From the NCBI GenBank assembly GCA_045613785.1, contig JAZLBQ010000026.1, forward strand, positions 12,697 to 76,696: 64,000 bases of DNA, given 5' to 3'. The notes below the pieces were generated by a model. That model was not told where the DNA came from and made no database searches. It saw only the letters and a list, made by a program, of their open reading frames with translations. The position numbers and the translations under genes were made by a program. This DNA comes from Candidatus Enterousia sp. GTDB taxonomy: Bacteria; Pseudomonadota; Alphaproteobacteria; Rs-D84. Positions 2,078-21,516 of the stretch are shown here, piece after piece. Positions within the stretch are counted from its first letter, which is position 1; the number at the start of each line of letters is the position of its first letter.

Positions 2078-3265
2078 TTATCTTTTCTTTTCTGGCAAAA
2101 TCAACAAACTAAACGCCCCGACAAAGACGGTTACAACCCACACAGCCGACGTTGTTCCGAACAAAGAAATCACAACTGCCGCCAACATCGGTGCAATAAC
2201 ATTTGGCAAATTAGAACTTGTTCTAAACACGCCATAATACTTGGCCTGCTGTGCCCGTCCCATACCGTCAAAGAACAACAAATCATGAACAGATTCCATC
2301 AATGCCCCCGACACCTGCCATGCAACAAATATAACCAATAACGGCACACCTGTAACGATTGTTGCAGCCGCTGACAATAATGCAAAAGAACCAAATCCCA
2401 GCATCAGCCAAATTGTTTTACCAAAACGTCTAACTGCCCGCCCCATAAATTCACTAAGCAACAAATAAGGCACAATCCCCAGCGTTAAAACCCAACCCAA
2501 CACGTCCTTATCAAATCCATTTTCAACAACCAAAATCGGCACATACAAGACACGCATTGCACGCAAAGAATAATACCCAAAGTTTACCAAATAAGCCCGC
2601 ACCATACCTGGCACCCTGAAAAATTGAACAGTATTTTTCCACAACGCCCGGAAAGTCTTGCGTGGATTGACCGGCTTTATTTGTTTATCTTCCTGAACGA
2701 TTTTGAAATATTTGAACACCGACCAAGCAATCAGATAAATCACAGCAGATGCAAAAAACGCCGCCCGATTACCAAACAAATCTGCAATCCAAACAGCAAG
2801 CATTGGTGCGAACAAGGCCCCCACATTCAACCATAAATGATACCGTGAATTTAACCTAGCCATACCGATATTTTTTGAAAAATCAGACATAAACAACGGA
2901 ATCAACATACTTGACAATGTGATTGCAATCCCGGTTGTATAGTCCAGAATAACAAAAGTCCGTGGCAATATTGAAAAGCTCATCATCGCATAGCAAATTG
3001 CCATCATCAGCAAAGCAAAAAAGAACACCCGAACCTTGGAAAAAGCCCGCAAGATTTCATTTGCGAACAGCCCTACAACAAAACAGAACACAGAATAAAT
3101 AGCAACATAAATTCCGACAATTGCAGAAGACTTAAAAATCTCTAATAAAACCAGTGAATAAACAGCATTGTAAATTCCATCTGCAAACCCTGTAAACAAA
3201 CCCAGATTTGCAAACGAAAAGCCACTAACACTTTTTCGAACTGAAATATATTTATCCCTTGCCAT
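2078..3265 (-). CDS. MFS-family transporter
   Basis: 395 aa, about 12 predicted hydrophobic helices; overall resemblance to major facilitator proteins. Confidence 0.6.
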   Translation of the reverse strand: MARDKYISVRKSVSGFSFANLGLFTGFADGIYNAVYSLVLLEIFKSSAIVGIYVAIYSVFCFVVGLFANEILRAFSKVRVFFFALLMMAICYAMMSFSILPRTFVILDYTTGIAITLSSMLIPLFMSDFSKNIGMARLNSRYHLWLNVGALFAPMLAVWIADLFGNRAAFFASAVIYLIAWSVFKYFKIVQEDKQIKPVNPRKTFRALWKNTVQFFRVPGMVRAYLVNFGYYSLRAMRVLYVPILVVENGFDKDVLGWVLTLGIVPYLLLSEFMGRAVRRFGKTIWLMLGFGSFALLSAAATIVTGVPLLVIFVAWQVSGALMESVHDLLFFDGMGRAQQAKYYGVFRTSSNLPNVIAPMLAAVVISLFGTTSAVWVVTVFVGAFSLLILPEKKR

Positions 3266-3319
3266 ATTGATAAATTATAGCATAAAAAAAACAAATCAGC
3301 AAACGCAAGGAATCAAAAT

Positions 3320-3430
3320 TTTAATGAAATTAAATAGAATAATTTAGATACGGACAGTGCCGTCCCCGCTGTGTCCAGAAGCGACATAAGGGAACGGCAC
3401 CGTTCGCAGATGAATTATTATATTTAATTT
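3320..3430. repeat. MITE-like palindromic element, copy 1 (TIR AAATTAAATAGAAT / ATTATATTTAATTT with internal hairpin)
   Basis: Near-identical to copies at 16011-16120 and 22661-22760. Terminal inverted repeats plus an internal imperfect palindrome gcggacagtgccgtcccc...gggaacggcaccgttcgc. Overlaps the yebC stop codon. Confidence 0.8.
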
Positions 3431-4140
3431 GCGGCAGTAAACACCTTCTGCACATCATCATTCGCATCCAATGCATCAACTAACTTTTCCAATTTAGCAT
3501 ACGCTTCGTCGTCCAAGTCCATTGGCATATTTGGAAGCCATGTCAATTCTGCCTGTTCTGGTTCACCCAATTTATCAGCCAAGATTTTTTGTGCATTGAT
3601 AAAATCTTCTGGTTTTGTTGTGATGATAAAACCTTCTTCGGATGTTTCCAGGTTATCAGCATTAGCCTCCATAATGATTTCCATCATTTCATCTTCAGTT
3701 TTGCCGATTGATGCAGGATACATAATCTGACCGGCACGTGTAAACATAAAGACAACACTGCCTTCTTCACCCATATTTCCGCCATTTTTACCAAAGATGT
3801 TACGAATTTCTGGCACTGTGCGACGTGGGTTATCGGTCAAGGCCTCTACAATAACAGGCACTGCCCCTGGTCCATAACCTTCATATCTTACTGCTTCATA
3901 GTTTTCGGTATTTGACCCCGATGCTTTATCGATTGCACGTTTGATATTATCGTTCGGCATAGAATTCTTGCGTGCTGTCAAGATTGCCAAACGCAGGCGT
4001 GGATTATTATCAGGGTTTTTATCACCCAGCTTTGCCGCCATTGTAATTTCACGTGCTAATTTTGTAAACAAACCACTTCGTGCTGCGTCTGCTGCACCTT
4101 TTTTGTGTTGGATATTATGCCATTTACTATGTCCACTCAT
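3424..4140 (-). CDS. yebC: YebC/PmpR-family transcriptional regulator
   Basis: 238 aa; MSGHSKWHNIQHKKGAADAARSGLFTKLAREI is the canonical YebC N-terminus. Confidence 0.9.
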   Translation of the reverse strand: MSGHSKWHNIQHKKGAADAARSGLFTKLAREITMAAKLGDKNPDNNPRLRLAILTARKNSMPNDNIKRAIDKASGSNTENYEAVRYEGYGPGAVPVIVEALTDNPRRTVPEIRNIFGKNGGNMGEEGSVVFMFTRAGQIMYPASIGKTEDEMMEIIMEANADNLETSEEGFIITTKPEDFINAQKILADKLGEPEQAELTWLPNMPMDLDDEAYAKLEKLVDALDANDDVQKVFTAAN

Positions 4141-4190
4141 ATTTGACCTTTTTATTTATTTAGGTTAAAATCACCCCAAAAGGATAGCAA

Positions 4191-4784
4191 ATGATTGGTA
4201 AATTGCAAGGCATAGTTGACTATATTGGCGACGGATATGTAATTTTATTGACAGGGGGTGTCGGCTACAAGGTTTATACTGCCGAATACCTGCCGCACAA
4301 AAGCACGGTAGAGCTGTGGATAGAAACAATTGTCCGAGAAGATTCCATACGCCTATTTGGTTTTACCAGTCTATCTGCACAAAACCTGTTTAATATGCTA
4401 ACGGGGGTTTCTGGTGTTGGTCCAAAGGTTGCTTTGGCAATACTTGGGACAATAAATTCCGACACATTGATGTCAGCGATTGCGACAGGCGACGCAAAAA
4501 CGATTGCTACTGCCCCAGGGGTTGGCAAAAAGATGGCAGAAAAAATCATTGTTGAATTAAAGAACAAAGTAGGTGGCATATCTGCGACATTATTTGCCCC
4601 AGAAGTTGACACAACTATGACAGCATCGTCTGCCCTACCAGATTTATTGATGGCATTAGAATCCTTGGGCTATCGCCGTCTAGACATTATTGAAATGGCA
4701 CAAAAGTTGGTGAATCAAAACCCAACCGCAGACGTATCTAAACTGGTTCCCCTGGCATTAAAAGAAATCAGCAAAGGCAAATAA
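4191..4784 (+). CDS. ruvA: Holliday junction branch migration protein RuvA
   Basis: 197 aa; MIGKLQG...GVGYKV N-terminus and the HhH segment GVSGVGPKVALAILG. Confidence 0.9.
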   Translation: MIGKLQGIVDYIGDGYVILLTGGVGYKVYTAEYLPHKSTVELWIETIVREDSIRLFGFTSLSAQNLFNMLTGVSGVGPKVALAILGTINSDTLMSAIATGDAKTIATAPGVGKKMAEKIIVELKNKVGGISATLFAPEVDTTMTASSALPDLLMALESLGYRRLDIIEMAQKLVNQNPTADVSKLVPLALKEISKGK

Positions 4785-4788
4785 AACA

Positions 4789-6114
4789 ATGAACAATAAC
4801 GACACAATTTTTGCACTTTCATCTGGGCACGGCAAATCAGGCGTTGCGGTTATTCGCATATCTGGCGACAAACTGCACGACGTATTTTCCACTTTTATAA
4901 ACAAGCCTGAATTTACCCCACGCCAGGCATATTTTTGCAATCTTCACGACAATAATAATGACCTGCTGGATCAATGCCTGGCAATATATTTTCCTGCTCC
5001 ACACAGTTTCACAGGCACTGACGTTATTGAATTACACACACACGGTGCACCTGCAACAATCAATGCGGTATTTGAATACCTAAAGACATTAGGCATGCGT
5101 CTTGCGACCCCTGGGGAATTTTCACGTCGTGCATTTTATAATAACAAAATGGACTTAGCAGATGTTGACGGTCTGGCGGCATTACTTGACGCCCAAACAG
5201 ACCAGCAACGCAAACACGCCCTTAAATCAATGCTGGGTTCAGACAGCCAGATTTACAACACCTGGCGTAATCAGATGGTTGAAATATCGGCTTATGCTGC
5301 TGCTATCCTTGATTACAGTCCTGATGATTTACCAGAAAACATATCTGAAACAATAAAATCCAGAACATCAAAATTATACATTGAAATAACCAATGCATTA
5401 AAAAAATACAAAACATCACGTGCAATCCGTGGCGGTATAAATATTGCATTAGTTGGCGAAACAAACGTTGGTAAATCATCAATATTTAATTACATTGTTG
5501 GTTCTAATCGCGCGATTGTATCTGATATTGCTGGCACTACACGTGATGTCATATCTGCAAATCTTGACATTGACGGATACCTGGTAAATTTATCAGACAC
5601 GGCAGGTCTGCGTGAAACAGACGATATAATTGAATCAATCGGGATACAGCGAACAAAATCAGAAATCAAAAACGCAGATATTGTCTTGCACGTTTACACG
5701 CCGGACACTGTTCCACTGTTACGCATAGATGAATCCCGCATTGGTCCAAATCCAAACATAAACATTGTGAACAAGTGCGACACAATTCCTCAATCAGAAT
5801 ACGACTATGAATTTGGTCTGCCCATATCTGCCAAGACAGGTATTGGAATGGATGATTTAATGGAAACAATCCGCAATAAAATTCACGAGATATTTGACAC
5901 CACAGAAAACAGCCTTTGCATAAATGCCCGCACCAAAGAATTATTAGAAACTGCCCAATCCGAATTAGGCAACGCACTAAACGCTGGCGAAAATTACGAC
6001 ATATTTGCCGAACACACTCGCCGTTCTGCGGACGCAATTGGCAAGATTCTGGGCACAATCACGGCAAGCGAGGTTCTAGACAAAACCTTTGGGCAACTAT
6101 GCCTAGGCAAATAA
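4789..6114 (+). CDS. mnmE: tRNA modification GTPase MnmE
   Basis: 441 aa; G-domain GETNVGKSS, DTAGLRE, and a C-terminal CLGK tail typical of MnmE/TrmE. Confidence 0.9.
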   Translation: MNNNDTIFALSSGHGKSGVAVIRISGDKLHDVFSTFINKPEFTPRQAYFCNLHDNNNDLLDQCLAIYFPAPHSFTGTDVIELHTHGAPATINAVFEYLKTLGMRLATPGEFSRRAFYNNKMDLADVDGLAALLDAQTDQQRKHALKSMLGSDSQIYNTWRNQMVEISAYAAAILDYSPDDLPENISETIKSRTSKLYIEITNALKKYKTSRAIRGGINIALVGETNVGKSSIFNYIVGSNRAIVSDIAGTTRDVISANLDIDGYLVNLSDTAGLRETDDIIESIGIQRTKSEIKNADIVLHVYTPDTVPLLRIDESRIGPNPNINIVNKCDTIPQSEYDYEFGLPISAKTGIGMDDLMETIRNKIHEIFDTTENSLCINARTKELLETAQSELGNALNAGENYDIFAEHTRRSADAIGKILGTITASEVLDKTFGQLCLGK

Positions 6115-6132
6115 CTCCCCAATCAGCATAGA

Positions 6133-6315
6133 TAAAATTAAATAGAATAGTCTAGAAAAAAACAATCGGGAATCGTAGTGCACAAACGCTACATACGATT
6201 CCCGATTTAAATTATAATTTATTGAAAATAAAAGATAATAGTATAGATACGGGTGGGGACGATATCGTAGTGCTCAAACGCTACATAAGATATCCCCCCC
6301 ACCCATAGATATGCC
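6133..6315. repeat. MITE-like element, tandem divergent double unit (copy 2a/2b)
   Basis: Starts with AAATTAAATAGAATAG. Two hairpins (aatcgggaatcgtagtg...ctacatacgattcccgatt and gggtggggacgatatcgtagtg...gatatcccccccaccc) share the loop core GTGCxCAAACGCTACATA with the other copies. Confidence 0.6.
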
Positions 6316-6329
6316 ATCAGATTTTATTT

Positions 6330-7910
6330 TTATTCGTGGCGGTCAGGATACATTCCATCTATCAGATTCTGACGAACCACGTGATGTTTAACCTTTTGCG
6401 TGCCAGTCAAAGGCAAATCCTCGGTTGTCATCGCAAAGTGTGTAACCCACTTATAACTGGCAACTTTTTTATTTGCTGCTGCAATTTCCGCCCCCAGTTT
6501 TTCGATTGTCATACCTGGTTCAACACTGAACACACCATATGAAACCGTTTTATCTTTGACCTTGTGTTCAAAGACAGCAACGTTTTTAACACCAGGGATT
6601 GTGATAAACATACCTTCTAATTCATCTGGATAAACGTTTTTACCACTGTCTAAAACGATAACCTGCTTTTTGCGACCAGCAAAATGCAATTCACCGTTTT
6701 TGTCCATTGTAACCATATCACCAGTATTAAAGAAGCCACGTTCATCAAAGATTTCTTTATTGGCTTCTTCGTTATTCAAGTATCCACCGAACACCTGATG
6801 TCCACGCAACCACAGAACACCAACGCCATCTTCGTTTTTATCACGAATTTCGCATTCATTATTCAGTGTTGGTCCACCAAAAGCGAACGGCAAACGTTTT
6901 TTAGTTGGCTTTGAAATACAGATTGGTCCAACAGTTTCGGTCAAACCATACCCCTGGATAAATGTCAACCCCAAACGTTCATAGAAAGTTTCAACCTCTG
7001 GCTTAGTTGCTGCACCACCTGCAATCAACAAGCGTGCACGTCCACCAAAGACATCCAAGATTGGTTTTTGGACTTTACGCACCAGCGCACCCAAACCAAT
7101 TTTCTGCAATGTCTTGCCGTATTTCAATACAAAAGACACCAACCCCCATTTTTTCTGTGCTTTGACGTTATCAATAATTTTGTTCCGGAAAACTTCCCAC
7201 AATCTTGGCACAGCTGGGATAACTTGTGGTCGGAATTTTTTAAAGTCCGCCATAATTTCCTTTGGATTGATTGTTGGCTGCAACAACACCCCTGCCCCAT
7301 AGTGCAAAGTTGCCAAGATTTCGACTGCGAAACCGAACACGTGATACATTGGCAAAAATCCATACAGATAATCACCTGGTTTAATCCATTCAGCCATTGA
7401 TTCCAATGAATTTGTGCATTCAACGATATTAAAGTGTGTCAACGGCACAACCTTTGGCTGCCCTGTTGAGCCTGATGTAAAAGACATTGTTGCAATATCC
7501 AAAGATTCTACTGCAGCAGGCTTTAAATCAGGGTTTATATCGCCATCTTTCTTGGTAATTTCATAGAAAGTAAATTTATCTGTTTTGTAAACAAAAGACT
7601 TTTCTGCACACACGAACTTACAGTCTGTGATTGTTGCCATATTGTCATATTCAAATGGGGTCAGATTTGTATCCAACAACAATACTGTCCCCCCCAGATA
7701 CCAAATTGCGAATAACGATATTGGGAATTCTGGGATATTATGCGACAAGATACCAATTACATCGCCTTTTTTAACACCTGCTTTATCAAGTGAAGCGGCT
7801 CTAGCCTTTACCAAACCAATGAAGTCTTTATACGTAACCCCTTCACGCACCAGATATAAATTATCTGGATATGTCTGTGCTGTTTTTTCCAGCATTTGAT
7901 ACATATTCAT
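6330..7910 (-). CDS. long-chain fatty-acid--CoA ligase (AMP-binding enzyme)
   Basis: AMP-binding motif TSGSTGQPKVV, GYGLTE, and the C-terminal K of the adenylation domain. Start set at the internal MNMYQMLEKTAQTYPDN; the upstream 52 codons of the ORF look non-coding. Confidence 0.8.
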   Translation of the reverse strand: MNMYQMLEKTAQTYPDNLYLVREGVTYKDFIGLVKARAASLDKAGVKKGDVIGILSHNIPEFPISLFAIWYLGGTVLLLDTNLTPFEYDNMATITDCKFVCAEKSFVYKTDKFTFYEITKKDGDINPDLKPAAVESLDIATMSFTSGSTGQPKVVPLTHFNIVECTNSLESMAEWIKPGDYLYGFLPMYHVFGFAVEILATLHYGAGVLLQPTINPKEIMADFKKFRPQVIPAVPRLWEVFRNKIIDNVKAQKKWGLVSFVLKYGKTLQKIGLGALVRKVQKPILDVFGGRARLLIAGGAATKPEVETFYERLGLTFIQGYGLTETVGPICISKPTKKRLPFAFGGPTLNNECEIRDKNEDGVGVLWLRGHQVFGGYLNNEEANKEIFDERGFFNTGDMVTMDKNGELHFAGRKKQVIVLDSGKNVYPDELEGMFITIPGVKNVAVFEHKVKDKTVSYGVFSVEPGMTIEKLGAEIAAANKKVASYKWVTHFAMTTEDLPLTGTQKVKHHVVRQNLIDGMYPDRHE

Positions 7911-7980
7911 AGTATAAAATTCCTTGTTGTTTTTTATATTGGACACGGATATTATACTCAGTAAACCAAGGAAATCAATT

Positions 7981-8751
7981 ATGAAAATTTTGACATTAAA
8001 TATAAACTCTATCCGTGCCCACATTGAAAGTTTCATTGACATTTTGCGTCGTGGTGAATACGACACAATCCTTGTTCAGGAATTAAAGGTTGAAACTGCA
8101 AACTTTCCACATGCCCTATTTGATGAATATGGATATAACGTGAAAGTTTTTGGTCAAAAGTCCTGGAATGGCGTTGCAACATTTTCCAAATTCTCCATCG
8201 AAGACGCTATCCTTGGCATGCCAAATTACGCAGATCCTAACGCCCGTTTTCTAGAATGTGTTGTTGACGGTCACGTTCGCCTGATAAACACATACATGCC
8301 AAACGGGGACACAGTTGAATCGCCCAAATTTCCATACAAACTAGAATGGATGCGTGCCTTTACAGATTACATATCCCAATATTTGGACAGTCCAGAACCT
8401 GTAATCATTGGTGGTGATTTCAACGTTGCAATCCAGGATCGAGATATCTGGAAGCCCAAAAATTACGAAGGCATTGCAATTTCTGCACCTGCCGCACGCA
8501 GCATTATGAACCAATGGCTAGACGCAGGCTGGACAGACGCCTGGCGTTCTCTGCACCCAGACGAAATAGATTATACCTGGTATGGCTATCGTGGCCGTGA
8601 CACAGTCGGCAACAAACAAGGCCTTCGCCTGGACTACTTTTTGTGCAACAAAACTGCTACAAAAATGATAAAGAATTGTGAAATAGACCTTGAACCACGC
8701 CTGGCCACAAAACCAACAGACCACTGTGGTTTAATGCTTGAAATAAAATAA
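7981..8751 (+). CDS. xth: exodeoxyribonuclease III
   Basis: MKILTLNINSIRAH N-terminus, the EEP-fold motifs QELK, GGDFNV and DHC near the C-terminus. Start moved to the internal ATG at 7981. Confidence 0.9.
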   Translation: MKILTLNINSIRAHIESFIDILRRGEYDTILVQELKVETANFPHALFDEYGYNVKVFGQKSWNGVATFSKFSIEDAILGMPNYADPNARFLECVVDGHVRLINTYMPNGDTVESPKFPYKLEWMRAFTDYISQYLDSPEPVIIGGDFNVAIQDRDIWKPKNYEGIAISAPAARSIMNQWLDAGWTDAWRSLHPDEIDYTWYGYRGRDTVGNKQGLRLDYFLCNKTATKMIKNCEIDLEPRLATKPTDHCGLMLEIK

Positions 8752-8783
8752 AATAAAATAAAATAAAATAAAATAAAATAAAA
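8741..8783. repeat. (AAATA)8 pentanucleotide microsatellite
   Basis: Eight perfect AAATA units overlapping the last three codons and stop of xth. Confidence 0.9.
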
Positions 8784-8800
8784 CAGCACAACAAAGACCT

Positions 8801-8834
8801 AAATAGAATGGTAAAACCCCAACCATTCTATTTA
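8801..8834. repeat. mini-palindrome made of the MITE TIR motif (AAATAGAATGG...CCATTCTATTTA)
   Basis: An 11-bp inverted repeat around a 12-nt spacer. It reuses the AAATAGAAT terminal motif of the MITE family and also supplies the TAA stop of the addB-like gene. Confidence 0.6.
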
Positions 8835-11345
8835 ATCTTTTGCTCTTTTCAAATCATCAAACGCCTGATATTTCTTATCGCTTGTTTCATAGTATTCATA
8901 TCCTGCATTTCCTGCCGAATACATATTAAACAACTCTGTTGTTTTATTGACTGCGGCATCTATCATTTGTTGTGTTTGCTCTTTATCATAATTGATAACA
9001 CGTGCATCACCATTTTTTAACTGCAAGAACTTCATCACAGGTGTTTTAGACAATTCTGTTGTTTCGATTGGAAATCCATCTGTTTGCAGGATATAAGCCT
9101 CTAATGGTAATTGTGGCATATTGCCCTGCTCTAATTGACTTTTTGATGGTGCAGAACCTGTTTTAATATCCATCACCACCCCGTCCCAGAATCTATCTGC
9201 CTTGGCACGAACTGTTCGTCCAGCAATTTTTACACTACCCTCTTTTTCAATTCCTGGGTTTTGAATATCTTTCAGTGCCTCGGACACCACGGGTGCTATT
9301 TCATAAAACCGCTTTCGCCAGAAATGAAACAACACACTATTTGTTCCCAGCAATTCACGAGCCTTATTCTCCATTTGAGCCGCCAACACATCAGGATTCC
9401 AATCGGTTGCATCTTCGATAACCTTGTGAACCAGATTTCCAAAATCACGTCCATCGACCCCGACCCAATAATCGTCCAATACCCTCAGTCTTAAAATATG
9501 CTTTACATAAAAAGCGTATGGATTATGAATTAAATATTCCAGTTCTGTCACATATACATCAGACCAATCTGCTGGTGGTGTTGGCACAGAATAATCCAAA
9601 CTCTGCATTTTCACATTATCTAATTTTGCCACGGCCTGTGTAATATCTTTATTTCTGTCAAACTTTCCTTTGGCCACAATCACACGTGAAATAAATCTAG
9701 ACTCGGCGGTTTGCACCCCACCTGAAACAGTGCTTCGCAGCCACCAAACCTGTGAACCACAGGACAGATTCATAAAATCCAACGACTGCAACGAAACCTT
9801 GCGGTCAGGCGACGGCAATCCAATTTTTTCAGCCAAATGCCAGGGCAGCCAGGCATTTTCATAACCACGTGCCGGAAACATTCCATCATTTAGTCCTGTT
9901 AAAATCACAACATCTGCGGTCTGCATTCTGGATTCGATTGTTCCCAGCACAACGACCTGTGCTTTATCGTCCATAACCCCACGCACAGACACATTTGATA
10001 TGGCATCTAAAACAAAAGCACGTGCATCAACCAGACTCAACTGCACACCAATTGCAGCCAACGCATCTGAAACCTTTTTAATTTCAATCCATATCTGCAC
10101 AGATGTTGCATCGTCCACCACAAAGTTCGGTGTAAATTCCGCCTGATGTTTTTGAACAATCAAAGAAATCGTATCAAATAAATTGTGTTTGCATTCTGCA
10201 CAAATTTCATCAAATTCATTTGAAGACGTTTCAATCCATCCATCAATCATATTCAGCAACGCCCGCCCTGTTGCGGTCATTGTTCCTGGGACACCACCTG
10301 AAAAATCAGCCTTTATTCCCCGACTTGCCAATTCTGTTGCAATACGTTGATTTCCGGCTGCGTCAGGTGTTATAACTAAAACTGTTTTATTTTCATCTAA
10401 TGCCCTTTGTGCAATTTCTGCAACGGCTGCAGCCTCGACTGATTCACGTGAACATTCGACCAAATGACAGTGCGACAAATCTACATCACTATTCATCACT
10501 GAAACATCATTTCCAAAAGCCTTATTCATAAAATCAATTGCAGATGGTCCAACATCAATCGGCACAACATCATCAGCCTCTAAGCCCAGTCTTGATAAAA
10601 ATTTATATTCAGAATTATATGGATTTGTATTTAATTGAAAATCCTGAACACGCCCCGATATTTTTCCAGACAAAATTATTCGTCCATGTGGTTGCTTGGC
10701 AATTTCAACCATCAAATCAGCTGTCGCTGGAACACTAGCAGTTGACGCACAAACAACAACCAATTTATATCGATTCAAATAATCTTTCCAACGACGAATA
10801 TCCCTATTTTTAGCCATTGCAGATGTCAATCTTCCGCCTGCATAATCATTCATAAAAGTTGACATTATGCTTAAAAATCTGGCCTTATTTTGAAAATGTC
10901 GTGCATACTTTTCATCAACCAATCCCGCCCAGTCAACAGTTGCAACATCAATTCCTTCATTTTCCAGATAATCGCACATACGCACTAAATCTCGTGCCAA
11001 TGTCAAAGCAGTTGTCCAGTTTCCAACACTTGCATCTGCGACCAGCAATCTAGCCATTAAAACAATACGTTCAGTATTTGAAATAATATCCCTAGAACGA
11101 ATATCTTCCCAGTCTTCATCATTTGGGTTATCAACCCCTTCCCCCAGCGCAACCAACTGTGGCAAAATCACAGCACCACCAGACTTTTGCACAATCATTT
11201 TTTCGACTGTTCGCACAGCACGACGACTGGGCAAGAAAATCAGCATATCTGCCAACGCCACCCCAGAAGCACTGATAAGTTTCCACAACGCCTCTGAAAT
11301 CTTGGCAGGATTAGTTGCGTAAAAAACGCTATGATTATTTGACAC
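8832..11345 (-). CDS. addB: AddB-like double-strand break repair protein (PD-(D/E)XK helicase-nuclease family)
   Basis: 837 aa. The N-terminus ADMLIFLPSRRAVRTVEKM resembles alphaproteobacterial AddB. No addA was seen adjacent. Confidence 0.5.
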   Translation of the reverse strand: MSNNHSVFYATNPAKISEALWKLISASGVALADMLIFLPSRRAVRTVEKMIVQKSGGAVILPQLVALGEGVDNPNDEDWEDIRSRDIISNTERIVLMARLLVADASVGNWTTALTLARDLVRMCDYLENEGIDVATVDWAGLVDEKYARHFQNKARFLSIMSTFMNDYAGGRLTSAMAKNRDIRRWKDYLNRYKLVVVCASTASVPATADLMVEIAKQPHGRIILSGKISGRVQDFQLNTNPYNSEYKFLSRLGLEADDVVPIDVGPSAIDFMNKAFGNDVSVMNSDVDLSHCHLVECSRESVEAAAVAEIAQRALDENKTVLVITPDAAGNQRIATELASRGIKADFSGGVPGTMTATGRALLNMIDGWIETSSNEFDEICAECKHNLFDTISLIVQKHQAEFTPNFVVDDATSVQIWIEIKKVSDALAAIGVQLSLVDARAFVLDAISNVSVRGVMDDKAQVVVLGTIESRMQTADVVILTGLNDGMFPARGYENAWLPWHLAEKIGLPSPDRKVSLQSLDFMNLSCGSQVWWLRSTVSGGVQTAESRFISRVIVAKGKFDRNKDITQAVAKLDNVKMQSLDYSVPTPPADWSDVYVTELEYLIHNPYAFYVKHILRLRVLDDYWVGVDGRDFGNLVHKVIEDATDWNPDVLAAQMENKARELLGTNSVLFHFWRKRFYEIAPVVSEALKDIQNPGIEKEGSVKIAGRTVRAKADRFWDGVVMDIKTGSAPSKSQLEQGNMPQLPLEAYILQTDGFPIETTELSKTPVMKFLQLKNGDARVINYDKEQTQQMIDAAVNKTTELFNMYSAGNAGYEYYETSDKKYQAFDDLKRAKD

Positions 11346-14523: not shown

Positions 14524-15531
14524 TTAATATCTTGATTTTTTTAATTGATTAAATAATTCGTATTCTATTCCATAGGAACTGATTTCTGTTGCGGATTTAT
14601 GGTATGCTTTGTCGTTTATATGAGCAGGTACATACGTAGCACGATCAATATACTGAATTTGTGGTCCCAATGCACCTTGGCGTGGTTTTTGATAATCTAA
14701 TGCATGGTGTATTTCGTGTGCTAATACGCTAACCATGCTATAAAAGAAATCGTTTTTATCTGGATGATGTTTTTTTACGTTCGTGATATTTACACGTACA
14801 ACTGATGATTTATATGCGTTTGGGTGTTTTTCTAGATCTTTGAGAAATTCATCCAAAAGTTCTTTCTTTTCTGTTTCGGATATATTTGATGGAAAAGTTA
14901 TGCTATAGGCGTGCGTGTGAAAACCATCGGTAACATCGTATCTGCCATTTGGTTTTACATCAGAATTTTCCCAATCAGTTATGACTTTTGAATCAATATA
15001 GCAGTCATATTCTTTGCAAAAATCTTTAGTTAAGGCATTAAATAAAGCATTATAAGCATCGATTATGCTACTTTCATCAGCCTCACGAGCAGCCACAACC
15101 AAATCTTTATGATTGTTTAATCTGCGTATCCAATCGGCAGAAAATTGTTTAGCCAATATGTATATATTTACTGTTCCTGCTTTGAATTTATCGCGTATTT
15201 TTTCTGGATTTTCATTGTTTTTGAACATTTGACTTAATTCTCTGTCGAATGTATCAAATTCACCTTTTATATAATTCAAATCCTTACTAACAGCGAACAA
15301 TGTAATAGGCAAATTTTTTGGCCTGTATTGATCCAATGAAATCGCTTTTGTAATTTTTGTGACCAATTCATCCGGTGAAAATTTGGTTAATAACCTGTTG
15401 GCAAAACCATCAATATCATTCATTTGTTTAAGTATACTATCTTTTTCATTTTGGTTTTTGGCGGCTTTATATTGTTTTAACAAATCAATGGTTTGTAATG
15501 CAGAGTTTATTTCAAGATTTTCATTATCCAT
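14524..15531 (-). CDS. hypothetical protein with HExxH zinc-metalloprotease motif
   Basis: 335 aa with no signal peptide; the VLAHEIHHALDY motif sits near the C-terminus. Confidence 0.5.
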   Translation of the reverse strand: MDNENLEINSALQTIDLLKQYKAAKNQNEKDSILKQMNDIDGFANRLLTKFSPDELVTKITKAISLDQYRPKNLPITLFAVSKDLNYIKGEFDTFDRELSQMFKNNENPEKIRDKFKAGTVNIYILAKQFSADWIRRLNNHKDLVVAAREADESSIIDAYNALFNALTKDFCKEYDCYIDSKVITDWENSDVKPNGRYDVTDGFHTHAYSITFPSNISETEKKELLDEFLKDLEKHPNAYKSSVVRVNITNVKKHHPDKNDFFYSMVSVLAHEIHHALDYQKPRQGALGPQIQYIDRATYVPAHINDKAYHKSATEISSYGIEYELFNQLKKSRY

Positions 15532-15740
15532 ATTAAATTCCTTTGCGTGAATTATATCATAAAGCTTTGTATATTAAAATTATATATAGAGAGGGAGGAT
15601 CCGAACGGGGCAAACCATTGGAAATCTTGACTGTTCGAAGATTGGTAAAATTTAGTGTTTTTTAGATATGATTTTTTCGAACAAGTAAAAGCATTGGAAA
15701 TCTAAAAGAAAACCGCACTTTAATGGTGCGGTGTATCTTT

Positions 15741-15827
15741 TGGTGGGAGTGGCTGGATTCGAACCAGCTCAGGCTTAAGCCAACAGATTTACAGTCTGCC
15801 CCGGCTCTCCAACTCCGGCGCACGCCC
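15741..15827 (-). tRNA. tRNA-Tyr (GTA), type II with long variable arm
   Basis: Reverse complement GGGCGTGCGCCGGAGTTGGAGAGCCGGGGCAGACTGTAAATCTG...CCACCA; anticodon loop CTGTAAA. Confidence 0.85.
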
Positions 15828-15833
15828 AATCCT

Positions 15834-15907
15834 TGGTGCGGGCAGCGGGAATCGAACCCGCATTTCAAGCTTGGAAGGCTTGCATACTAGCCTTTGTACT
15901 ATGCCCG
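15834..15907 (-). tRNA. tRNA-Gly (TCC)
   Basis: Reverse complement GCGGGCATAGTACAAAGGCTAGTATGCAAGCCTTCCAAGCTTGAAATGCGGGTTCGATTCCCGCTGCCCGCACCA. Confidence 0.85.
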
Positions 15908-16010
15908 CAACAAAATCAAAGCCATCTGATTATATACGAAATGAAAACAAAATCAAGAACAAAGTAAAAGAAGAATAAAAATAAATTCCTGCCCCACCCA
16001 AATCCTGAGT

Positions 16011-16120
16011 TTAATGAAATTAAATAGAATGATTTAGATGCGGACAGTGCCGTCCCCGCAGTGTCCACAAGCGACATAAGGGAACGGCACCGTTCGCAGA
16101 TGAATTATTATATTTAATTT
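16011..16120. repeat. MITE-like palindromic element, copy 3
   Basis: About 95% identical to copy 1. Its right TIR supplies the TAA stop of the 80-aa Cys-rich gene. Confidence 0.8.
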
Positions 16121-16361
16121 ACCGCAATGGCGGGAAACAATCACCCCCCACTTCCGGACAACAGTTAAATCCTAAATCAGCCATGTCGGTATATACTTCA
16201 CCTGGACAACAACCATATTTATCTGGTTGTGCACCATAATCACAGACCGGCATATCACTAGGACGCATTGCATCACGATTAGCCCCTGTTAAAACACCAA
16301 AAGCAAAGCCTACAAAAAAAGCAATTACAACTGAAACTATTGAACAGATGTTTTTCTTCAT
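16119..16361 (-). CDS. small secreted cysteine-rich protein (six-Cys C-terminal module)
   Basis: 80 aa with signal peptide MKKNICSIVSVVIAFFVGFAFG; C-terminal module CDYGAQPDKYGCCPGEVYTDMADLGFNCCPEVGGDCFPP. Confidence 0.6.
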   Translation of the reverse strand: MKKNICSIVSVVIAFFVGFAFGVLTGANRDAMRPSDMPVCDYGAQPDKYGCCPGEVYTDMADLGFNCCPEVGGDCFPPLR

Positions 16362-16382
16362 CTTTACGCCCTTTGTCTTGTG

Positions 16383-16970
16383 TTACTGTTGTTTAAATGG
16401 TGGGAAACATTCATTGCCACCGTCTTTTGGGCAACATGCAAAAACGGCATTTCCCAAATCTCTGAATATTTCATCGCCACAGCAACCAAATTTATTTGGC
16501 TTTGAACCATCTGCACAAAGCCCTGCATCTAAATTGGCTAATTCCTTTTCAACTTCGGCCTGAATCTTGGCATTTTCTGCTGCGATTTTTTCTTCTTCAG
16601 TCATCGTATCTTCTGGAGCTACTTCTTCTGCACTTGCAACTTCTTCGGCCTTAACCTCTTCTTCTGTGGTTGAATTTTCTGGATTTTCTTCAACCTCTTG
16701 TGCTTTTTCCTCTGTTTCAATCACAACCATAGACGTCGCACTAGAACGTCTTGATGCAGCAACCTTGGCACATTTGCGACGATAATCCGCCTTTAACTTG
16801 GTTAGTTCTGCAATTATTTCATCATCAGGATCCACAATCTGCACCAATTCAGTAATTTTGTTTTGAATATCAACACAAGTCAAACGCTGAGAAACATTAA
16901 CTGTTGACACATCATCAGCCCATGCATTTATTGCAAAAATACAGCCGAACAAGACAATTAGTTTTTTCAT
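16383..16970 (-). CDS. secreted acidic protein with the same six-Cys C-terminal module
   Basis: 195 aa with signal peptide MKKLIVLFGCIFAINAWA and a Glu-rich linker; C-terminal module CADGSKPNKFGCCGDEIFRDLGNAVFACCPKDGGNECFPP, paralogous to 16119..16361. Confidence 0.6.
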   Translation of the reverse strand: MKKLIVLFGCIFAINAWADDVSTVNVSQRLTCVDIQNKITELVQIVDPDDEIIAELTKLKADYRRKCAKVAASRRSSATSMVVIETEEKAQEVEENPENSTTEEEVKAEEVASAEEVAPEDTMTEEEKIAAENAKIQAEVEKELANLDAGLCADGSKPNKFGCCGDEIFRDLGNAVFACCPKDGGNECFPPFKQQ

Positions 16971-16978
16971 TTTTTTTC

Positions 16979-17515
16979 CTATTGTTCATTGATTATTTTT
17001 TCGACTTCCAAGATAAAATCAATCGCAGGTGCAGTCAGTTTTTTCGCAGTTTCGAATATTTCTTCGGCTGCCATCTGCATATTCAAACGTTTATACGTTT
17101 CAACAACTTCGATTGTATCTTCTTGACTAAATTCATCATCTGTTATTGCCCGTGCAATTTCCAGTTCTTGCTTTGCCAATTCAACATACTTTTCAGAGTT
17201 TTCCGCACATCCCCGTTCGGACAAATTAGCATAGATTTTTGCACGCATAATTCTGTCATCAGAAATAGTATTTTCTGCTGGCAATTTTTCCAACAATAAC
17301 TCTTCTACAATGACACAAGTTGGTTTTGGTTCTATCTGAATTTCTGGCACAGGGTTTGTTGTTTCTTCGACCTCTGCTGCAATAACTTTTTTTGAACTAC
17401 TGAACCCCAGTCCAACCATTATACCACATACAAACAATGCAAGCAGTCCCATAATTCCCCAGAATTTTTGAGCCTTGGTATGAACAATTTTATATTGTTG
17501 TTTTTGTTTTTTCAT
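16979..17515 (-). CDS. hypothetical single-pass membrane protein
   Basis: 178 aa; N-terminal TM GIMGLLALFVCGIMVGLGF, then a predicted helical periplasmic domain. Confidence 0.5.
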   Translation of the reverse strand: MKKQKQQYKIVHTKAQKFWGIMGLLALFVCGIMVGLGFSSSKKVIAAEVEETTNPVPEIQIEPKPTCVIVEELLLEKLPAENTISDDRIMRAKIYANLSERGCAENSEKYVELAKQELEIARAITDDEFSQEDTIEVVETYKRLNMQMAAEEIFETAKKLTAPAIDFILEVEKIINEQ

Positions 17516-17543: not shown

Positions 17544-18254
17544 TTATTCCACGATTCCGTTGTTGATTGTAATTCTACGATCTGCCCGCTGTGCCAGATT
17601 CATATCATGTGTCACGAACAGCATTGCCATTTTATTCTTGCGTGCTAAATCCAGCAATAAATCGAACACCGCCCCTGCATTATGCGGGTCAAGACTGCCA
17701 GTTGGTTCATCTGCCAACAAAATATCAGGATTGTTTGCCAAGGCTCGTGCCACTGCCGTTCGTTGTTGTTCACCACCACTCATTTCACCAGGATGATGAG
17801 ATGCACGATGTGCAACATTTGCAGCCCGCAACAATTTCATTGCCCTGGCCCTGGCGACATTTTCTTCGACGCCATTTGCCAGCATTGGCAACATGACATT
17901 TTCCAATGCGGTAAAGTCAGCCAACAAATTATGTCGCTGATAAACAAAGCCTATTTTTTTACGACGAACCTGAGTCCTTCTTTCTTCGTCCATTCTTTGA
18001 ACAGGCATACCGTTTATCAAGATACTGCCACCACTTGGCTTGTCCAACAGTCCTACACATTGCAACAAAGTAGATTTTCCTGACCCAGACGAACCAACCA
18101 TTGCAACAATTTCACCACGATGCAAATCAAATCCCCCACCACGCAATATATGCAAAGGCTGTCCGCCTTCGACAAACGTGCGTTTAATATCCCGCACTGA
18201 CATAACCACGTCACCAGACTGTACCTTTGACAAAGACTCTAAAATATTCGCCAT
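17544..18254 (-). CDS. lolD: lipoprotein-releasing ABC transporter ATP-binding protein LolD
   Basis: 236 aa; Walker A GSSGSGKST, signature LSGGEQQR, and high similarity to E. coli LolD along its full length. Confidence 0.85.
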   Translation of the reverse strand: MANILESLSKVQSGDVVMSVRDIKRTFVEGGQPLHILRGGGFDLHRGEIVAMVGSSGSGKSTLLQCVGLLDKPSGGSILINGMPVQRMDEERRTQVRRKKIGFVYQRHNLLADFTALENVMLPMLANGVEENVARARAMKLLRAANVAHRASHHPGEMSGGEQQRTAVARALANNPDILLADEPTGSLDPHNAGAVFDLLLDLARKNKMAMLFVTHDMNLAQRADRRITINNGIVE

Positions 18255-18929
18255 TTATTCCCGCCCATTATTCTTATTTAGTTCTATCTGTGCCACAGCC
18301 TGCTTTAATATATCACGAAATTGTGGCGCAACCACATGCCCAACTCCATACCAAATGCCCTTCAGCGCTTCTTGGGTATCAACATCCATCTGGTCTTTGG
18401 TTCTATTCAGATAATATTCAATATCTTCGGGCGAAAAACCAAAGGCAACCCCATGAATAAAATCCAACTCCAAATTATTTAACAACTTATCTGCATATTG
18501 CGGAAAGTTCTTTTTTGCATCCTGCACTTTTGCTGGCTTTATCGAAACATTTGCCAATTCTGGATTCAGACGCTTTATTTCATCTACATAACGCTTCATC
18601 TGAACACGCCAATTGTCCTTATTTTGCAAAATATAATTTTCTAAATCTGCAATTTCCTGTTCTGAATATCGCGTATCACCAACCACTATTTTACGCACCG
18701 CTTTTTGATAATCTTGCAGTCTGTACATATACCCATATCGCATCATCAAACCAAATGGACTTAATCCATCTGGCAACTTATATTGATAATAAATCTTGAA
18801 TGGTAATTTTACCCCATGCTCCACAAACATCTTTTCTGCATCCAACGCACTAGACTGATACTCGCCCCACTCTGCATTAAATTGTTCCAGCATAATTTTG
18901 TTAAAAAGCAATTCTGTTTTCTTACTCAT
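18255..18929 (-). CDS. hypothetical cytoplasmic protein inserted between lolC and lolD
   Basis: 224 aa with no recognisable motif. Its start overlaps the lolC stop by 8 nt, and its stop TAA directly abuts the lolD ATG (TAAATG). Confidence 0.5.
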   Translation of the reverse strand: MSKKTELLFNKIMLEQFNAEWGEYQSSALDAEKMFVEHGVKLPFKIYYQYKLPDGLSPFGLMMRYGYMYRLQDYQKAVRKIVVGDTRYSEQEIADLENYILQNKDNWRVQMKRYVDEIKRLNPELANVSIKPAKVQDAKKNFPQYADKLLNNLELDFIHGVAFGFSPEDIEYYLNRTKDQMDVDTQEALKGIWYGVGHVVAPQFRDILKQAVAQIELNKNNGRE

Positions 18930-20175
18930 TTCTCAGCACCTCAACCGGGTCTGTATTTGCCGCTTTCCACGCTGGATACAGCGTCGCCAAAAATGCCAAC
19001 AATATTGCAATCAGCGCAATACCCAAAACATCTGTCCACACCAACTTTGATGGCAACTCTGACAGATAATATAATTCCGCCGGGAACAAATCCCGTCCTG
19101 TCAACCATTGGAAAAACTGTCGTATTGGTTCAATATAAATTGCGACCACCACCCCCAGTATTGTTCCAAATAACGCCCCAATAATTCCAATTGATGTTCC
19201 TGACAAAACAAAGATTTTCATCATAGACCGACGACTGACCCCAAAAGTTCGCAACACTGCAATATCTTTGTTTTTATCTTTGACCAGCATTACCAACGAC
19301 GAAACTATATTAAAAGCCGCCACAATAACAATCAGCAACAAGATTAAAAACATAACATTTGATTCGACCTGCAACGCCCCAACAAACCCACGATTTAAAT
19401 CACGCCAATCACGGACAACAAATCCTTCGGGCAATAACCTTGCCAAACTTTCCACAACGACTGTTGTATCTTCTGGGTCTTCCAAGAAAACATCAATATG
19501 TGTTACACTATTTCCGATATTTAGATACTTTTGTGCAGTTTCCAGCGGCATAAAGATATACCCAGAATCATATTCATACATACCCATAAAGAAAGAACTC
19601 ATCACCGGATAAGACATAATTCGTGGCATTGACCCAAAAGGTGTTGGTGTTGCTGCATTTGCCGATACCAATGAAATTTTATCCCCCATCGTGACACGCA
19701 ACGCACGTGTAAGCGACGCCCCTGCAACCAATTCACCATCAGATATAGCAGACAAATCCTTACCATAAATACGTGTTCCATTTTGTGTTTTTTTTGCCAA
19801 ATCAGACATACGAATACCACGAATCATTGCCCCTGTGTTATTACCATTGGCTGTGGCCATAACCTGCCCTTCTGCGATTGGCACGATACCGGTTGCCCGT
19901 TGTTCAACAACCTTGTTTTGTTTAATTTTGTCGATTAGGAAATCAAAGTCAGCAATTGCACCATCTTGATGATAGACAACGACATGTCCGTTCATTCCCA
20001 CGATACGCCCTAACAGAGTCTCGTGAAAACCACCCATTACAGACATCACAACAATCAAGGTCGCAACACCTAACATGATACCAATCAGCGACACCCAGGA
20101 AATCACAGAACCGAATCCCCGTTTTTTTGCCCCCAAATATCTAAAAGCGATTTTTCTTTCCAGTTTTGAAAACAT
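18922..20175 (-). CDS. lolC: lipoprotein-releasing system permease LolC/E family
   Basis: 417 aa; N-terminal TM, a large periplasmic domain, and 3 C-terminal TMs (FtsX/MacB-like topology); LolC-like N-terminus FRYLGAKKRGF. Confidence 0.8.
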   Translation of the reverse strand: MFSKLERKIAFRYLGAKKRGFGSVISWVSLIGIMLGVATLIVVMSVMGGFHETLLGRIVGMNGHVVVYHQDGAIADFDFLIDKIKQNKVVEQRATGIVPIAEGQVMATANGNNTGAMIRGIRMSDLAKKTQNGTRIYGKDLSAISDGELVAGASLTRALRVTMGDKISLVSANAATPTPFGSMPRIMSYPVMSSFFMGMYEYDSGYIFMPLETAQKYLNIGNSVTHIDVFLEDPEDTTVVVESLARLLPEGFVVRDWRDLNRGFVGALQVESNVMFLILLLIVIVAAFNIVSSLVMLVKDKNKDIAVLRTFGVSRRSMMKIFVLSGTSIGIIGALFGTILGVVVAIYIEPIRQFFQWLTGRDLFPAELYYLSELPSKLVWTDVLGIALIAILLAFLATLYPAWKAANTDPVEVLRNE

Positions 20176-20187
20176 CAGTTTTTATCC

Positions 20188-21516
20188 TTATTCACTCAAA
20201 AAATCACGCAACGCATCACCAATCAGTTCATTTGCCTGTCCAATTTGAGCAGGTCCATCAACAATTGAAATCACACGTGGCGACATAAAGACAACCAGTT
20301 CTGCAAAAGGCGACACCAATGTTTCAGGTGTTGTCACAAACGAATGCGTTGGAATACCGATAATCACATAGTTATCCCCAACACTTGTTGGCAAATTGAA
20401 TGAGCTCAATTCTCCCTGACTTGTTCGCAACACGATTTTTGCATCAATCTTATCACGACCACCAAAGTCCCCATATTTTCCGGTTGCCCCAACAATTAAA
20501 TCTGTTTCCAATCGTTCTTCACGACCACATTGTCCGATATCAAATCTTGATTGCCAACCATTTGGTATAGCAAACGTTCCTTGAGAAATTAAAACAACAT
20601 TTGCCTGTTGTGCTAAAAATTCCTGCAAAGTTTTTGTATTGATTTCAGGACCTACGACCAACGCACGTCCAACGACACCTGGCACAGACATTTTAATATT
20701 CTTTTCACCGAACGCTGGCAATAAATTCATCCAAACAATTGGGTTATCTGTTCGTGGATAGACACGATAAACATCGATATCCCACGCCAACATATATTTC
20801 TTTCCAGAAACATCTGCGATAATCCTTGCGACCTCACGTTCAGTCTGATAATTTCCTTCAAAGACCAACGTTTTATCTTGCCAATCAACAATTAGATTAC
20901 GCATATCTGCACCATGCATTGCGTCCAGCAACGCCATAATAATCGTTTCATCTTGTGGCATTTTAATCAGCCACTTTCCACGATGCATCAAATGCAATTC
21001 GCCATTTTGTGCATCATAGGAATAATAAGCACGTCCCATTTTTGCCATCAATTCAACAGCATCAGACAACGCCCCCGATGAAATAGTCCCTGAAATTTTT
21101 TCAAATAACTGTTCATCTTCTACAACTGCAATATCTGTTCCGTCCAGCAATTTATCCAACGCCCGTTTAACAGTCAAATCCTTGAATTCATAGTCTGAAA
21201 CTTTCAACTCTGGCAGTTCATCACCCACCCCCAGACGTATCATTTCAATTTTTTCAGCAGGCACAACCGAAACCACACTTTGATTATTCCAATCAACTTC
21301 ACACCGCTTTGGCAGCTCTACCGAAAAGCGTCGTGCAGTATCTGTTGTCAAGGCTGCTTTTTTTGGAAAGATTGGCACAGAATTTTCATCGATTACCAAC
21401 TCGTCAATAACAGTGATATTATCAATAATCTGCACAGGCTTGTCTTCTTGAACACAGGCCGCCATTGCGAAACAACAAATCACCCAAGATAATTTTTTTA
21501 ATGCTCTCATACCCAC
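20188..21516 (-). CDS. outer-membrane lipoprotein with secretin-like features (tentative)
   Basis: 442 aa; signal peptide plus Cys (FAMAAC), a secretin_N-like block (VKRALDKLLDGTDIAVV...LSDAVELMAKMGRAYYSYD) and a C-terminal IIGIPTHSF...ELVVFMSPRVI resembling the secretin VPxLGxIPxLGxLF...ELLVFITPRII motif. Confidence 0.35.
   Translation of the reverse strand: MGMRALKKLSWVICCFAMAACVQEDKPVQIIDNITVIDELVIDENSVPIFPKKAALTTDTARRFSVELPKRCEVDWNNQSVVSVVPAEKIEMIRLGVGDELPELKVSDYEFKDLTVKRALDKLLDGTDIAVVEDEQLFEKISGTISSGALSDAVELMAKMGRAYYSYDAQNGELHLMHRGKWLIKMPQDETIIMALLDAMHGADMRNLIVDWQDKTLVFEGNYQTEREVARIIADVSGKKYMLAWDIDVYRVYPRTDNPIVWMNLLPAFGEKNIKMSVPGVVGRALVVGPEINTKTLQEFLAQQANVVLISQGTFAIPNGWQSRFDIGQCGREERLETDLIVGATGKYGDFGGRDKIDAKIVLRTSQGELSSFNLPTSVGDNYVIIGIPTHSFVTTPETLVSPFAELVVFMSPRVISIVDGPAQIGQANELIGDALRDFLSE

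Follow-up and report, generated by a model that had tools for sequence, protein, structure and literature searches.

A lineage-specific six-cysteine domain on four types of exported and envelope protein in gut Alphaproteobacteria

Results

Two adjacent genes share a C-terminal six-cysteine module

The window analysed here, i.e., the whole stretch of 64,000 nucleotides (64 kb) from Candidatus Enterousia sp. (contig JAZLBQ010000026.1, positions 12,697 to 76,696), contains two adjacent minus-strand genes, one encoding a protein of 80 amino acids (aa; 16119-16361) and one a protein of 195 aa (16383-16970), which end in the same module of about 40 residues and are referred to below as the short and long proteins. 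Both genes in the list of open reading frames (ORFs) lie exactly where a first-pass annotation of the DNA had placed them, and its proposal of paralogy between the C-terminal modules of the two proteins is supported by BLASTP (43% identity over 46 residues, E 2e-13, in a single comparison). A six-frame scan of the window gave no third copy. The module is a real, exported and lineage-specific six-cysteine domain found on four types of carrier protein, so far only in metagenome-assembled genomes (MAGs) of uncultured gut Alphaproteobacteria, many of them Ca. Enterousia (Rs-D84).

In both window proteins, the module is C-terminal and follows the formula C-x10-CC-x14-CC-x6/7-CFPP. The six-cysteine pattern described in the first-pass annotation stands, as does a middle spacer of 14 residues, which is the distance between the CC doublets in both proteins; the alternative middle spacer of 15 residues does not, and the first spacer is C-x10-CC, i.e., x7-K-[YF]-G, instead of eight residues followed by K[YF]G. 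The final loop has six residues (x6) in the short protein and one more (x7) in the long. The type-A module of the short protein (16128-16244, minus strand) runs from C40 to P78, CDYGAQPDKYGCCPGEVYTDMADLGFNCCPEVGGDCFPP, and the protein ends in ...CDYGAQPDKYGCCPGEVYTDMADLGFNCCPEVGGDCFPPLR, while the type-B module of the long protein (16398-16517, minus strand) runs from C152 to P191, CADGSKPNKFGCCGDEIFRDLGNAVFACCPKDGGNECFPP, and the protein ends in ...CADGSKPNKFGCCGDEIFRDLGNAVFACCPKDGGNECFPPFKQQ.

The commonest spacing, 10/0/14/0/6, is seen in 153 of 250 unique modules, and x14 is almost invariant. A comparison of 114 diverse modules shows no variation in the six cysteines, in the glycine before the first CC or in the glutamate at the second position after it; an aspartate is near-invariant, the tail C[FY]PP[ILM][KR] is conserved, and in essentially every carrier 1-7 residues separate the module from the C-terminus. 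This pattern of conservation reflects strong purifying selection and not diversification of the module. For the module alone, AlphaFold2 (AF2), using the 114 sequences, predicts a compact fold (predicted local distance difference test score, pLDDT, 79.9; predicted template modelling score, pTM, 0.54) and puts at its centre a beta-hairpin that spans the x14 spacer (residues 20-26/29-34). Judging from this predicted secondary structure, the conserved E, [YF] and D, which occupy alternate positions of hairpin strand 1, should share one face. Two subtypes can be distinguished by regular expression: subtype A (GE.YTDMG..GFNCCP) occurs on short, VirB10 and bitopic proteins and as internal copies, and subtype B (PNKFGCC..E.FKDLGN.VFACCP) is almost exclusively the terminal module of the long-protein family.

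Architecture of the long and short proteins

The long protein, as resolved by family alignment and AF2, consists of a signal peptide, a two-cysteine helical hairpin, an acidic disordered linker, a helix and the type-B module. Its Sec signal peptide (aa 1-18; 16917-16970, minus strand), MKKLIVLFGCIFAINAWA then DD, was read from the sequence by eye, with cleavage at AWA/DD, and the A-x-A/[D/E] site is kept in 27 aligned homologues. The N-terminal helical hairpin that follows (aa ~26-80; 16731-16895, minus strand) has an LKADYRR motif and two invariant cysteines, C32 and C67, and AF2 of the long protein places its helices at residues 32-43 and 50-80 with a pLDDT of about 90. A second conserved element, a helix ending in ..LEQELANLDAG (aa 125-148; 16527-16598, minus strand), stands ahead of the module in both the family alignment and the AF2 model. 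The acidic linker that the first-pass annotation had noted in front of the module is seen at aa 81-121 (16608-16730, minus strand); it is predicted to be disordered (pLDDT <50), and in the family alignment it is variable in length, gap-rich and unconserved. The mature long protein has exactly eight cysteines in 118 of 120 family members, and the short-protein module has six in 31/31.

In the short protein, a hydrophobic N-terminus (aa 1-27) is joined to the type-A module by a 12-residue spacer. The hydrophobic stretch of ~20 residues carries a T-G-A/N site in the window copy; most orthologues have an A-x-A-like site (WAHA/SR) and several have no A-x-A at all, so that both a cleaved signal peptide and an uncleaved membrane anchor are possible. 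A signal peptide had been assigned to each protein: the assignment is sound for the long protein, with a Sec-type peptide and a conserved A-x-A site, and is too definite for the short protein, in which the segment may be either signal peptide or anchor.

The module has no described relatives

As the first-pass annotation had surmised, the module matches no described domain: Pfam, NCBIfam, PADLOC, and PDB sequence and fold searches were all negative. Neither window protein, in its module or over its whole length, gave a significant match in Pfam, NCBIfam or PADLOC, a PDB profile search with the module returned only a chance tetraspanin CCG match (E 0.84), and hidden Markov models (HMMs) of hevein/CBM18, CBM1 and CBM10 matched none of the modules except for one hit to CBM_10 at E 1.2. 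Granulin (PF00396) was the only recurring Pfam family, matching 3 of the 114 modules (best E 0.097) and neither window protein at E<=1, and granulin structures were among the top Foldseek matches to the module with a non-significant E of about 6. Granulin shares with the module a small size, vicinal CC at strand ends and a 'PDG..(T/G)CC' stretch ahead of 'G(W/F)xCCP', and its disulfide-rich build and beta-hairpin core resemble those predicted for the module; unlike the module, with its six cysteines and two doublets, it has 12 cysteines and four CC doublets (C-C-CC-CC-CC-CC-C-C). Granulin homology was rejected by hhalign, which gave a probability of 4% with approximate granulin sequences. At the level of sequence, we take the granulin likeness as a resemblance of pattern and not as homology, and our literature search returned no description of bacterial periplasmic granulin-like domains.

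Distribution of the module and its four carriers

Homologues of the short family (34 clusters at 90% identity) and of the long family (more than 311 such clusters) are all named 'hypothetical protein' and have no Pfam domain. Over the homologue searches together, the short gene has about 190 orthologous clusters at 90% identity, none of them named. When 1.84 billion representatives were searched exhaustively by hmmsearch with a profile of 22 module sequences, 262 clusters (50% identity) were obtained at E<=1e-3 and 145 at E<=1e-10, and this search recovered the large carriers that word-index searches with module profiles, which returned nearly only short proteins, had missed. In one genome per GTDB species we found 416 module-encoding stretches; the 80 listed of these are all in MAGs classed as Alphaproteobacteria, proteobacterium or 'Rickettsiales', with Ca. 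Enterousia a frequent label. The module is therefore widely present in other genomes and not peculiar to this one, a point on which the first-pass annotation had made its proposal depend. The closest relative of the locus at the DNA level is a MAG labelled Candidatus Enterousia sp. (L004), with proteins 97-100% identical, and one bitopic carrier (L084) lies on a 55% GC alphaproteobacterial contig with GcrA, suggesting that the family may reach somewhat beyond Enterousia. Rs-D84 is an uncultured alphaproteobacterial order that includes Enterousia, lives in animal guts, has genomes below 1 Mb, and is fermentative, with no respiratory chains (PMC12306168). An obligately symbiotic or parasitic life has been proposed for its members, which are probably partner-dependent; they keep the RodA/MreB/MrdA peptidoglycan machinery, and their many hypothetical membrane proteins are suggested by the same authors to serve transport or cell-cell interaction (PMC12306168). 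Our literature search found no papers that tie Rs-D84 to type IV secretion.

The carriers fall into four architectures. The short proteins (72-96 aa) consist of a transmembrane (TM) segment or signal peptide followed by the module. The hairpin family, to which the long protein belongs (about 170-335 aa), has a signal peptide, hairpin, linker and one to three modules; its multi-module members (P0155, P0156, P0157 and P0172) carry two or three, usually an internal type-A and then a terminal type-B module. A duplicated helical hairpin is seen in three further members of this family (P0192, P0263 and P0282). The VirB10-like carriers (630-850 aa) comprise a TrbI/VirB10 domain (PF03743 at E 5e-18 to 4e-10; NF038091, VirB10, at E 4e-16), a cysteine-containing C-terminal extension of ~200 residues and the module, and the bitopic inner-membrane carriers (635-870 aa) comprise a conserved cytoplasmic N-domain, a coiled coil, a TM segment, a P/E-rich periplasmic linker and the module. 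All four carriers occur together in the genome of Ca. E. intestinigallinarum, in which the A modules are 69-75% identical to one another and 56-59% identical to the B module.

The module-bearing VirB10, a core subunit of the type IV secretion system (T4SS), is encoded directly after virB8-virB9, and VirB8, CagX/VirB9 and TrbI lie in this order in a complete 958-kb Rs-D84 MAG (L045). In this MAG (2119-3642, 3643-6126 and 7191-9446), VirB9 is unusually long at 507 aa, VirB10 bears the ~200-residue cysteine-containing extension, and a neighbouring 751-aa exported protein is extremely cysteine-rich and has no family match. Searches of PDB and NCBIfam with the N-terminal domain of the bitopic carrier returned only coiled-coil noise. 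In two distant lineages, a gene for a prepilin peptidase (Peptidase_A24) is found close to the bitopic gene but on the other strand, at 2658-3554 (Peptidase_A24) and 3772-6138 (bitopic) in an Enterousia-like genome (L050) and at 1683-2222 and 2961-5519 on the 55% GC contig (L084), where GcrA lies between the two.

The pair belongs to a fixed block with lolCE and lolD

In 37/37 loci that encode the pair, the gene order is unk442 lipoprotein - lolCE - (optional unk224) - lolD - unk178 - long - short, with the short gene always directly 3' of the long gene and the pair present once per locus recovered; the sole exception is one locus (L052) with a short gene and no recognisable long gene. All members of the block lie on the minus strand in the window, with gaps of -8 to 28 nucleotides (nt). 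At its head, unk442 (20188-21516) is a 442-aa lipoprotein with the lipobox AMAAC that is 77-98% identical across pair loci; it has no Pfam, NCBIfam or PDB match beyond a weak STN hint (E 0.056), and its C-terminal third appears secretin-like by eye (..ELVVFMSPRVI). The LolCE permease (18922-20175) scores 423.8 bits on TIGR02212 against a cutoff of 362 and contains MacB_PCD and FtsX. The LolD-like ABC ATPase (17544-18254; ABC_tran) has TIGR02211 as its best match, with 254 bits against an equivalog cutoff of 308. Between the two lies unk224 (18255-18929), a 224-aa ORF without signal peptide that overlaps lolCE by 8 nt and has a 0-nt gap to lolD; it is found in only about 8/37 related loci at 22-33% identity and, being sparse and divergent, is best seen as a variable insertion into a block that is fixed apart from it. 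The product of unk178 (16979-17515), encoded between lolD and the long gene in 37/37 pair loci, is a TM-anchored periplasmic helical protein of 178 aa with two cysteines, for which Pfam and NCBIfam gave no family match and PDB nothing. As a possible paralogue of the long protein's hairpin it was rejected, since BLASTP shows no similarity.

Both genes of the pair have Shine-Dalgarno (SD)-like sequences 7-9 nt 5' of the ATG. The long gene follows unk178 after 8 nt, and its SD-like TAGGA overlaps the stop codon of that gene; the short gene follows the long gene after 21 nt and has AAAGGG 7 nt ahead of its ATG. No terminator-like site was found on the minus strand between genes of the block. Some 200 nt beyond the 3' end of the short gene, and on its strand, are the genes for tRNA-Tyr(GTA) and tRNA-Gly(TCC) (15741-15908), and the first minus-strand terminator-like hairpin (15712-15732) occurs only beyond them, so that the tRNAs may be co-transcribed with the block.

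Discussion

The reading that we favour, with a probability of about 0.45 and hence somewhat short of even odds, is that the module is a disulfide-locked docking or anchoring module of periplasmic envelope machinery. Its six cysteines would pair within the domain as three disulfides and so lock a small hairpin fold, as suggested by the even cysteine counts, the separate cysteine pair on the hairpin helices, the cysteine-rich periplasmic neighbours and the confident, compact AF2 model. The module would dock onto another module, A with B, or bind a ligand common to the carriers, e.g., peptidoglycan or a component of the outer membrane, thereby tethering envelope machines, the T4SS included. The long protein would then act as a two-headed tether, with a disulfide-stapled hairpin at one end, the module at the other and a flexible acidic linker of ~40 residues between them, and the short protein would be the module in its barest form, held in the membrane or free. 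The inner membrane anchors VirB10 and the bitopic protein, and perhaps the short protein as well, so that three of the four carriers argue for a periplasmic and not a surface role; the adhesin and signalling functions that the first-pass annotation also named are further candidates. Moreover, with ~900 genes per genome, the retention of the domain on four envelope proteins, including VirB10, makes it likely to be functionally important. The common module is what suggests a possible association of the short or long protein with the T4SS.

Several observations weigh against this reading. The pair is encoded with lolCDE and not with T4SS genes; conserved synteny and tight spacing in compact genomes are weak evidence of a functional link, and therefore we claim no link to the Lol system. 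Only ~12 residues separate the hydrophobic segment of the short protein from its module, so that the protein, if still anchored, would not reach peptidoglycan. The subtypes A and B were assigned by a crude regular expression and cross-tabulated against architecture. Furthermore, the organisms live by strict fermentation and have no respiratory chains (PMC12306168), and therefore may lack the usual quinone-dependent route through DsbB; no Dsb-like CxxC protein is encoded in the window, which at 64 kb is too small a sample to be informative.

A related proposal, which we regard as conceivable but doubtful, is that the module serves as the connector of a lineage-specific envelope scaffold, in which A modules on VirB10, the PodJ/FimV-like bitopic protein and the short protein would be bridged by the B module of the long protein, or docked to peptidoglycan or glycan via the E-[YF]-D strand face. 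VirB10 would bring probably 14 A modules to each T4SS core. If true, such a scaffold would organise a secretion apparatus perhaps used by these metabolically dependent bacteria to exploit partner cells.

Two other explanations concern the state of the cysteines. In the first, which we consider unlikely, they would stay reduced, as the organisms are strict anaerobes without respiratory-chain-coupled oxidation, and the CC doublets together with the conserved E/D would hold a Zn, Cu(I) or Fe-S-type centre in the periplasm as a buffer, chaperone or structural site. The six invariant cysteines with two vicinal pairs, the invariant E and the near-invariant D suit a metal site, and so do the fermentative metabolism without respiratory chains (PMC12306168), the lack of a Dsb-like protein in the window and the name 'uncharacterized Zn-finger protein' given to one family member by the Joint Genome Institute (JGI) pipeline. 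However, strictly even cysteine counts and the separate pair on the two hairpin helices fit disulfides, the cysteine-rich VirB10 extension and 751-aa neighbour imply an oxidising envelope, the AF2 model of the module is confident with no ligand present, and neither His residues nor CxxC motifs typical of Zn/Cu sites are present. Alternatively, the disulfides could be intermolecular and bridge modules on different envelope proteins into a covalent lattice like the OmcA/OmcB/MOMP complex of Chlamydia. Each genome has several module-bearing envelope proteins, the neighbouring envelope proteins are cysteine-rich, vicinal CC side chains would on structural reasoning point to opposite sides, and the reduced genomes go with a probably host-dependent lifestyle (PMC12306168); nevertheless, we rate cross-linking as quite improbable, given that the peptidoglycan machinery is retained (RodA/MreB/MrdA, PMC12306168; PBP2 in the window), that the even cysteine number and compact predicted fold are satisfied by intradomain pairing, and that the proteins have no Pfam match to chlamydial cysteine-rich families.

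Two further explanations, to both of which we give very little credence, turn on export. The first-pass annotation had suggested an effector or toxin, and small, exported, cysteine-rich proteins encoded beside a MacB/FtsX-type ABC transporter, whose ATPase also scores on bacteriocin-exporter models, in a genome with a T4SS could indeed be a secreted disulfide-rich toxin, bacteriocin or effector that leaves through either machine. However, the permease is a bona fide LolCE that scores above the curated cutoff, there is no GG leader, and PADLOC gave no match. The neighbours are LolCE, LolD, two uncharacterised envelope proteins and tRNAs, with no immunity, leader-peptidase, maturation or modification genes adjacent, and the pair is present once per locus. 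With the same module also forming part of VirB10 and of an inner-membrane scaffold protein, and conserved under strong purifying selection instead of diversifying, a role as effector or toxin is unlikely. The module could instead be a C-terminal sorting or secretion tag read by an export machine, e.g., the co-encoded, highly conserved and secretin-like lipoprotein unk442, which would send the carrier to the outer membrane or surface. Its position 1-7 residues from the C-terminus and the conserved C[FY]PP[ILM][KR] tail accord with a tag, whereas the internal copies in multi-module proteins (P0155-P0157, P0172) and the predicted folding of the module do not; VirB10 and the bitopic protein, both anchored in the inner membrane, are parts of machines and not cargo, and the module lacks the TM-plus-basic-tail features of known CTERM signals.

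The module and its carriers have parallels in three described systems. As in SPOR proteins (FtsN/DamX/DedD/RlpA) and the peptidoglycan-binding end of PodJ, one small C-terminal domain sits on unrelated envelope proteins, and the SPOR-type carriers likewise include minimal TM-anchored, large bitopic (with a long Pro/Glu-rich linker) and soluble exported forms. However, SPOR has an RNP-like fold, is not cysteine-rich and has no sequence or fold similarity to the module, and we know of no SPOR parallel for the attachment to VirB10. VirB7 is a small lipoprotein of the T4SS outer-membrane complex that is disulfide-linked to VirB9 in Agrobacterium. The short protein resembles it as a very small exported cysteine protein that could decorate the VirB9/VirB10 core, with its module common to the VirB10 C-terminus, but it has no lipobox, lies outside the virB cluster and is not homologous to VirB7. 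The chlamydial OmcA and OmcB are cysteine-rich envelope proteins with CC doublets from an obligately host-associated bacterium with a reduced genome. The module differs in being a self-contained domain of 40 residues borne by several carriers and in having no Pfam match to them, and Rs-D84 keeps its genes for peptidoglycan synthesis.

Our analysis defines a new domain family with a profile, two subtypes and its carrier architectures, and links anonymous small ORFs to a secretion apparatus. Rs-D84/Enterousia are widespread in the gut, and for attachment to partners and feeding the survey of the group names only 'hypothetical membrane-bound proteins' (PMC12306168). What is most interesting about the module is that it is fused to VirB10, a core subunit of the T4SS; if the module does connect an envelope scaffold as in the more doubtful proposal above, this would represent a new kind of T4SS outer-complex decoration together with a new disulfide-rich binding fold. 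No concept would be overturned, small disulfide-rich binding domains being a familiar kind of module. A foldable module of 40 residues is easy to express, which favours structural work.

Other genes in the window

The window has a GC content of 39% and encodes gyrase B, topoisomerase I, primase, PBP2 and the T4SS protein VirB4, which marks it as ordinary chromosome. The VirB4/CagE-type T4SS ATPase gene lies at 47335-49764 (minus strand), and virB8-9-10 lie elsewhere in related genomes, so that the T4SS genes appear scattered. Beyond the tRNA genes, a 335-aa protein without family match (14524-15531, minus strand) contains a metalloprotease-like HEIHH (HExxH) motif, and a Fic-domain protein is encoded on the plus strand at 40879-41976.

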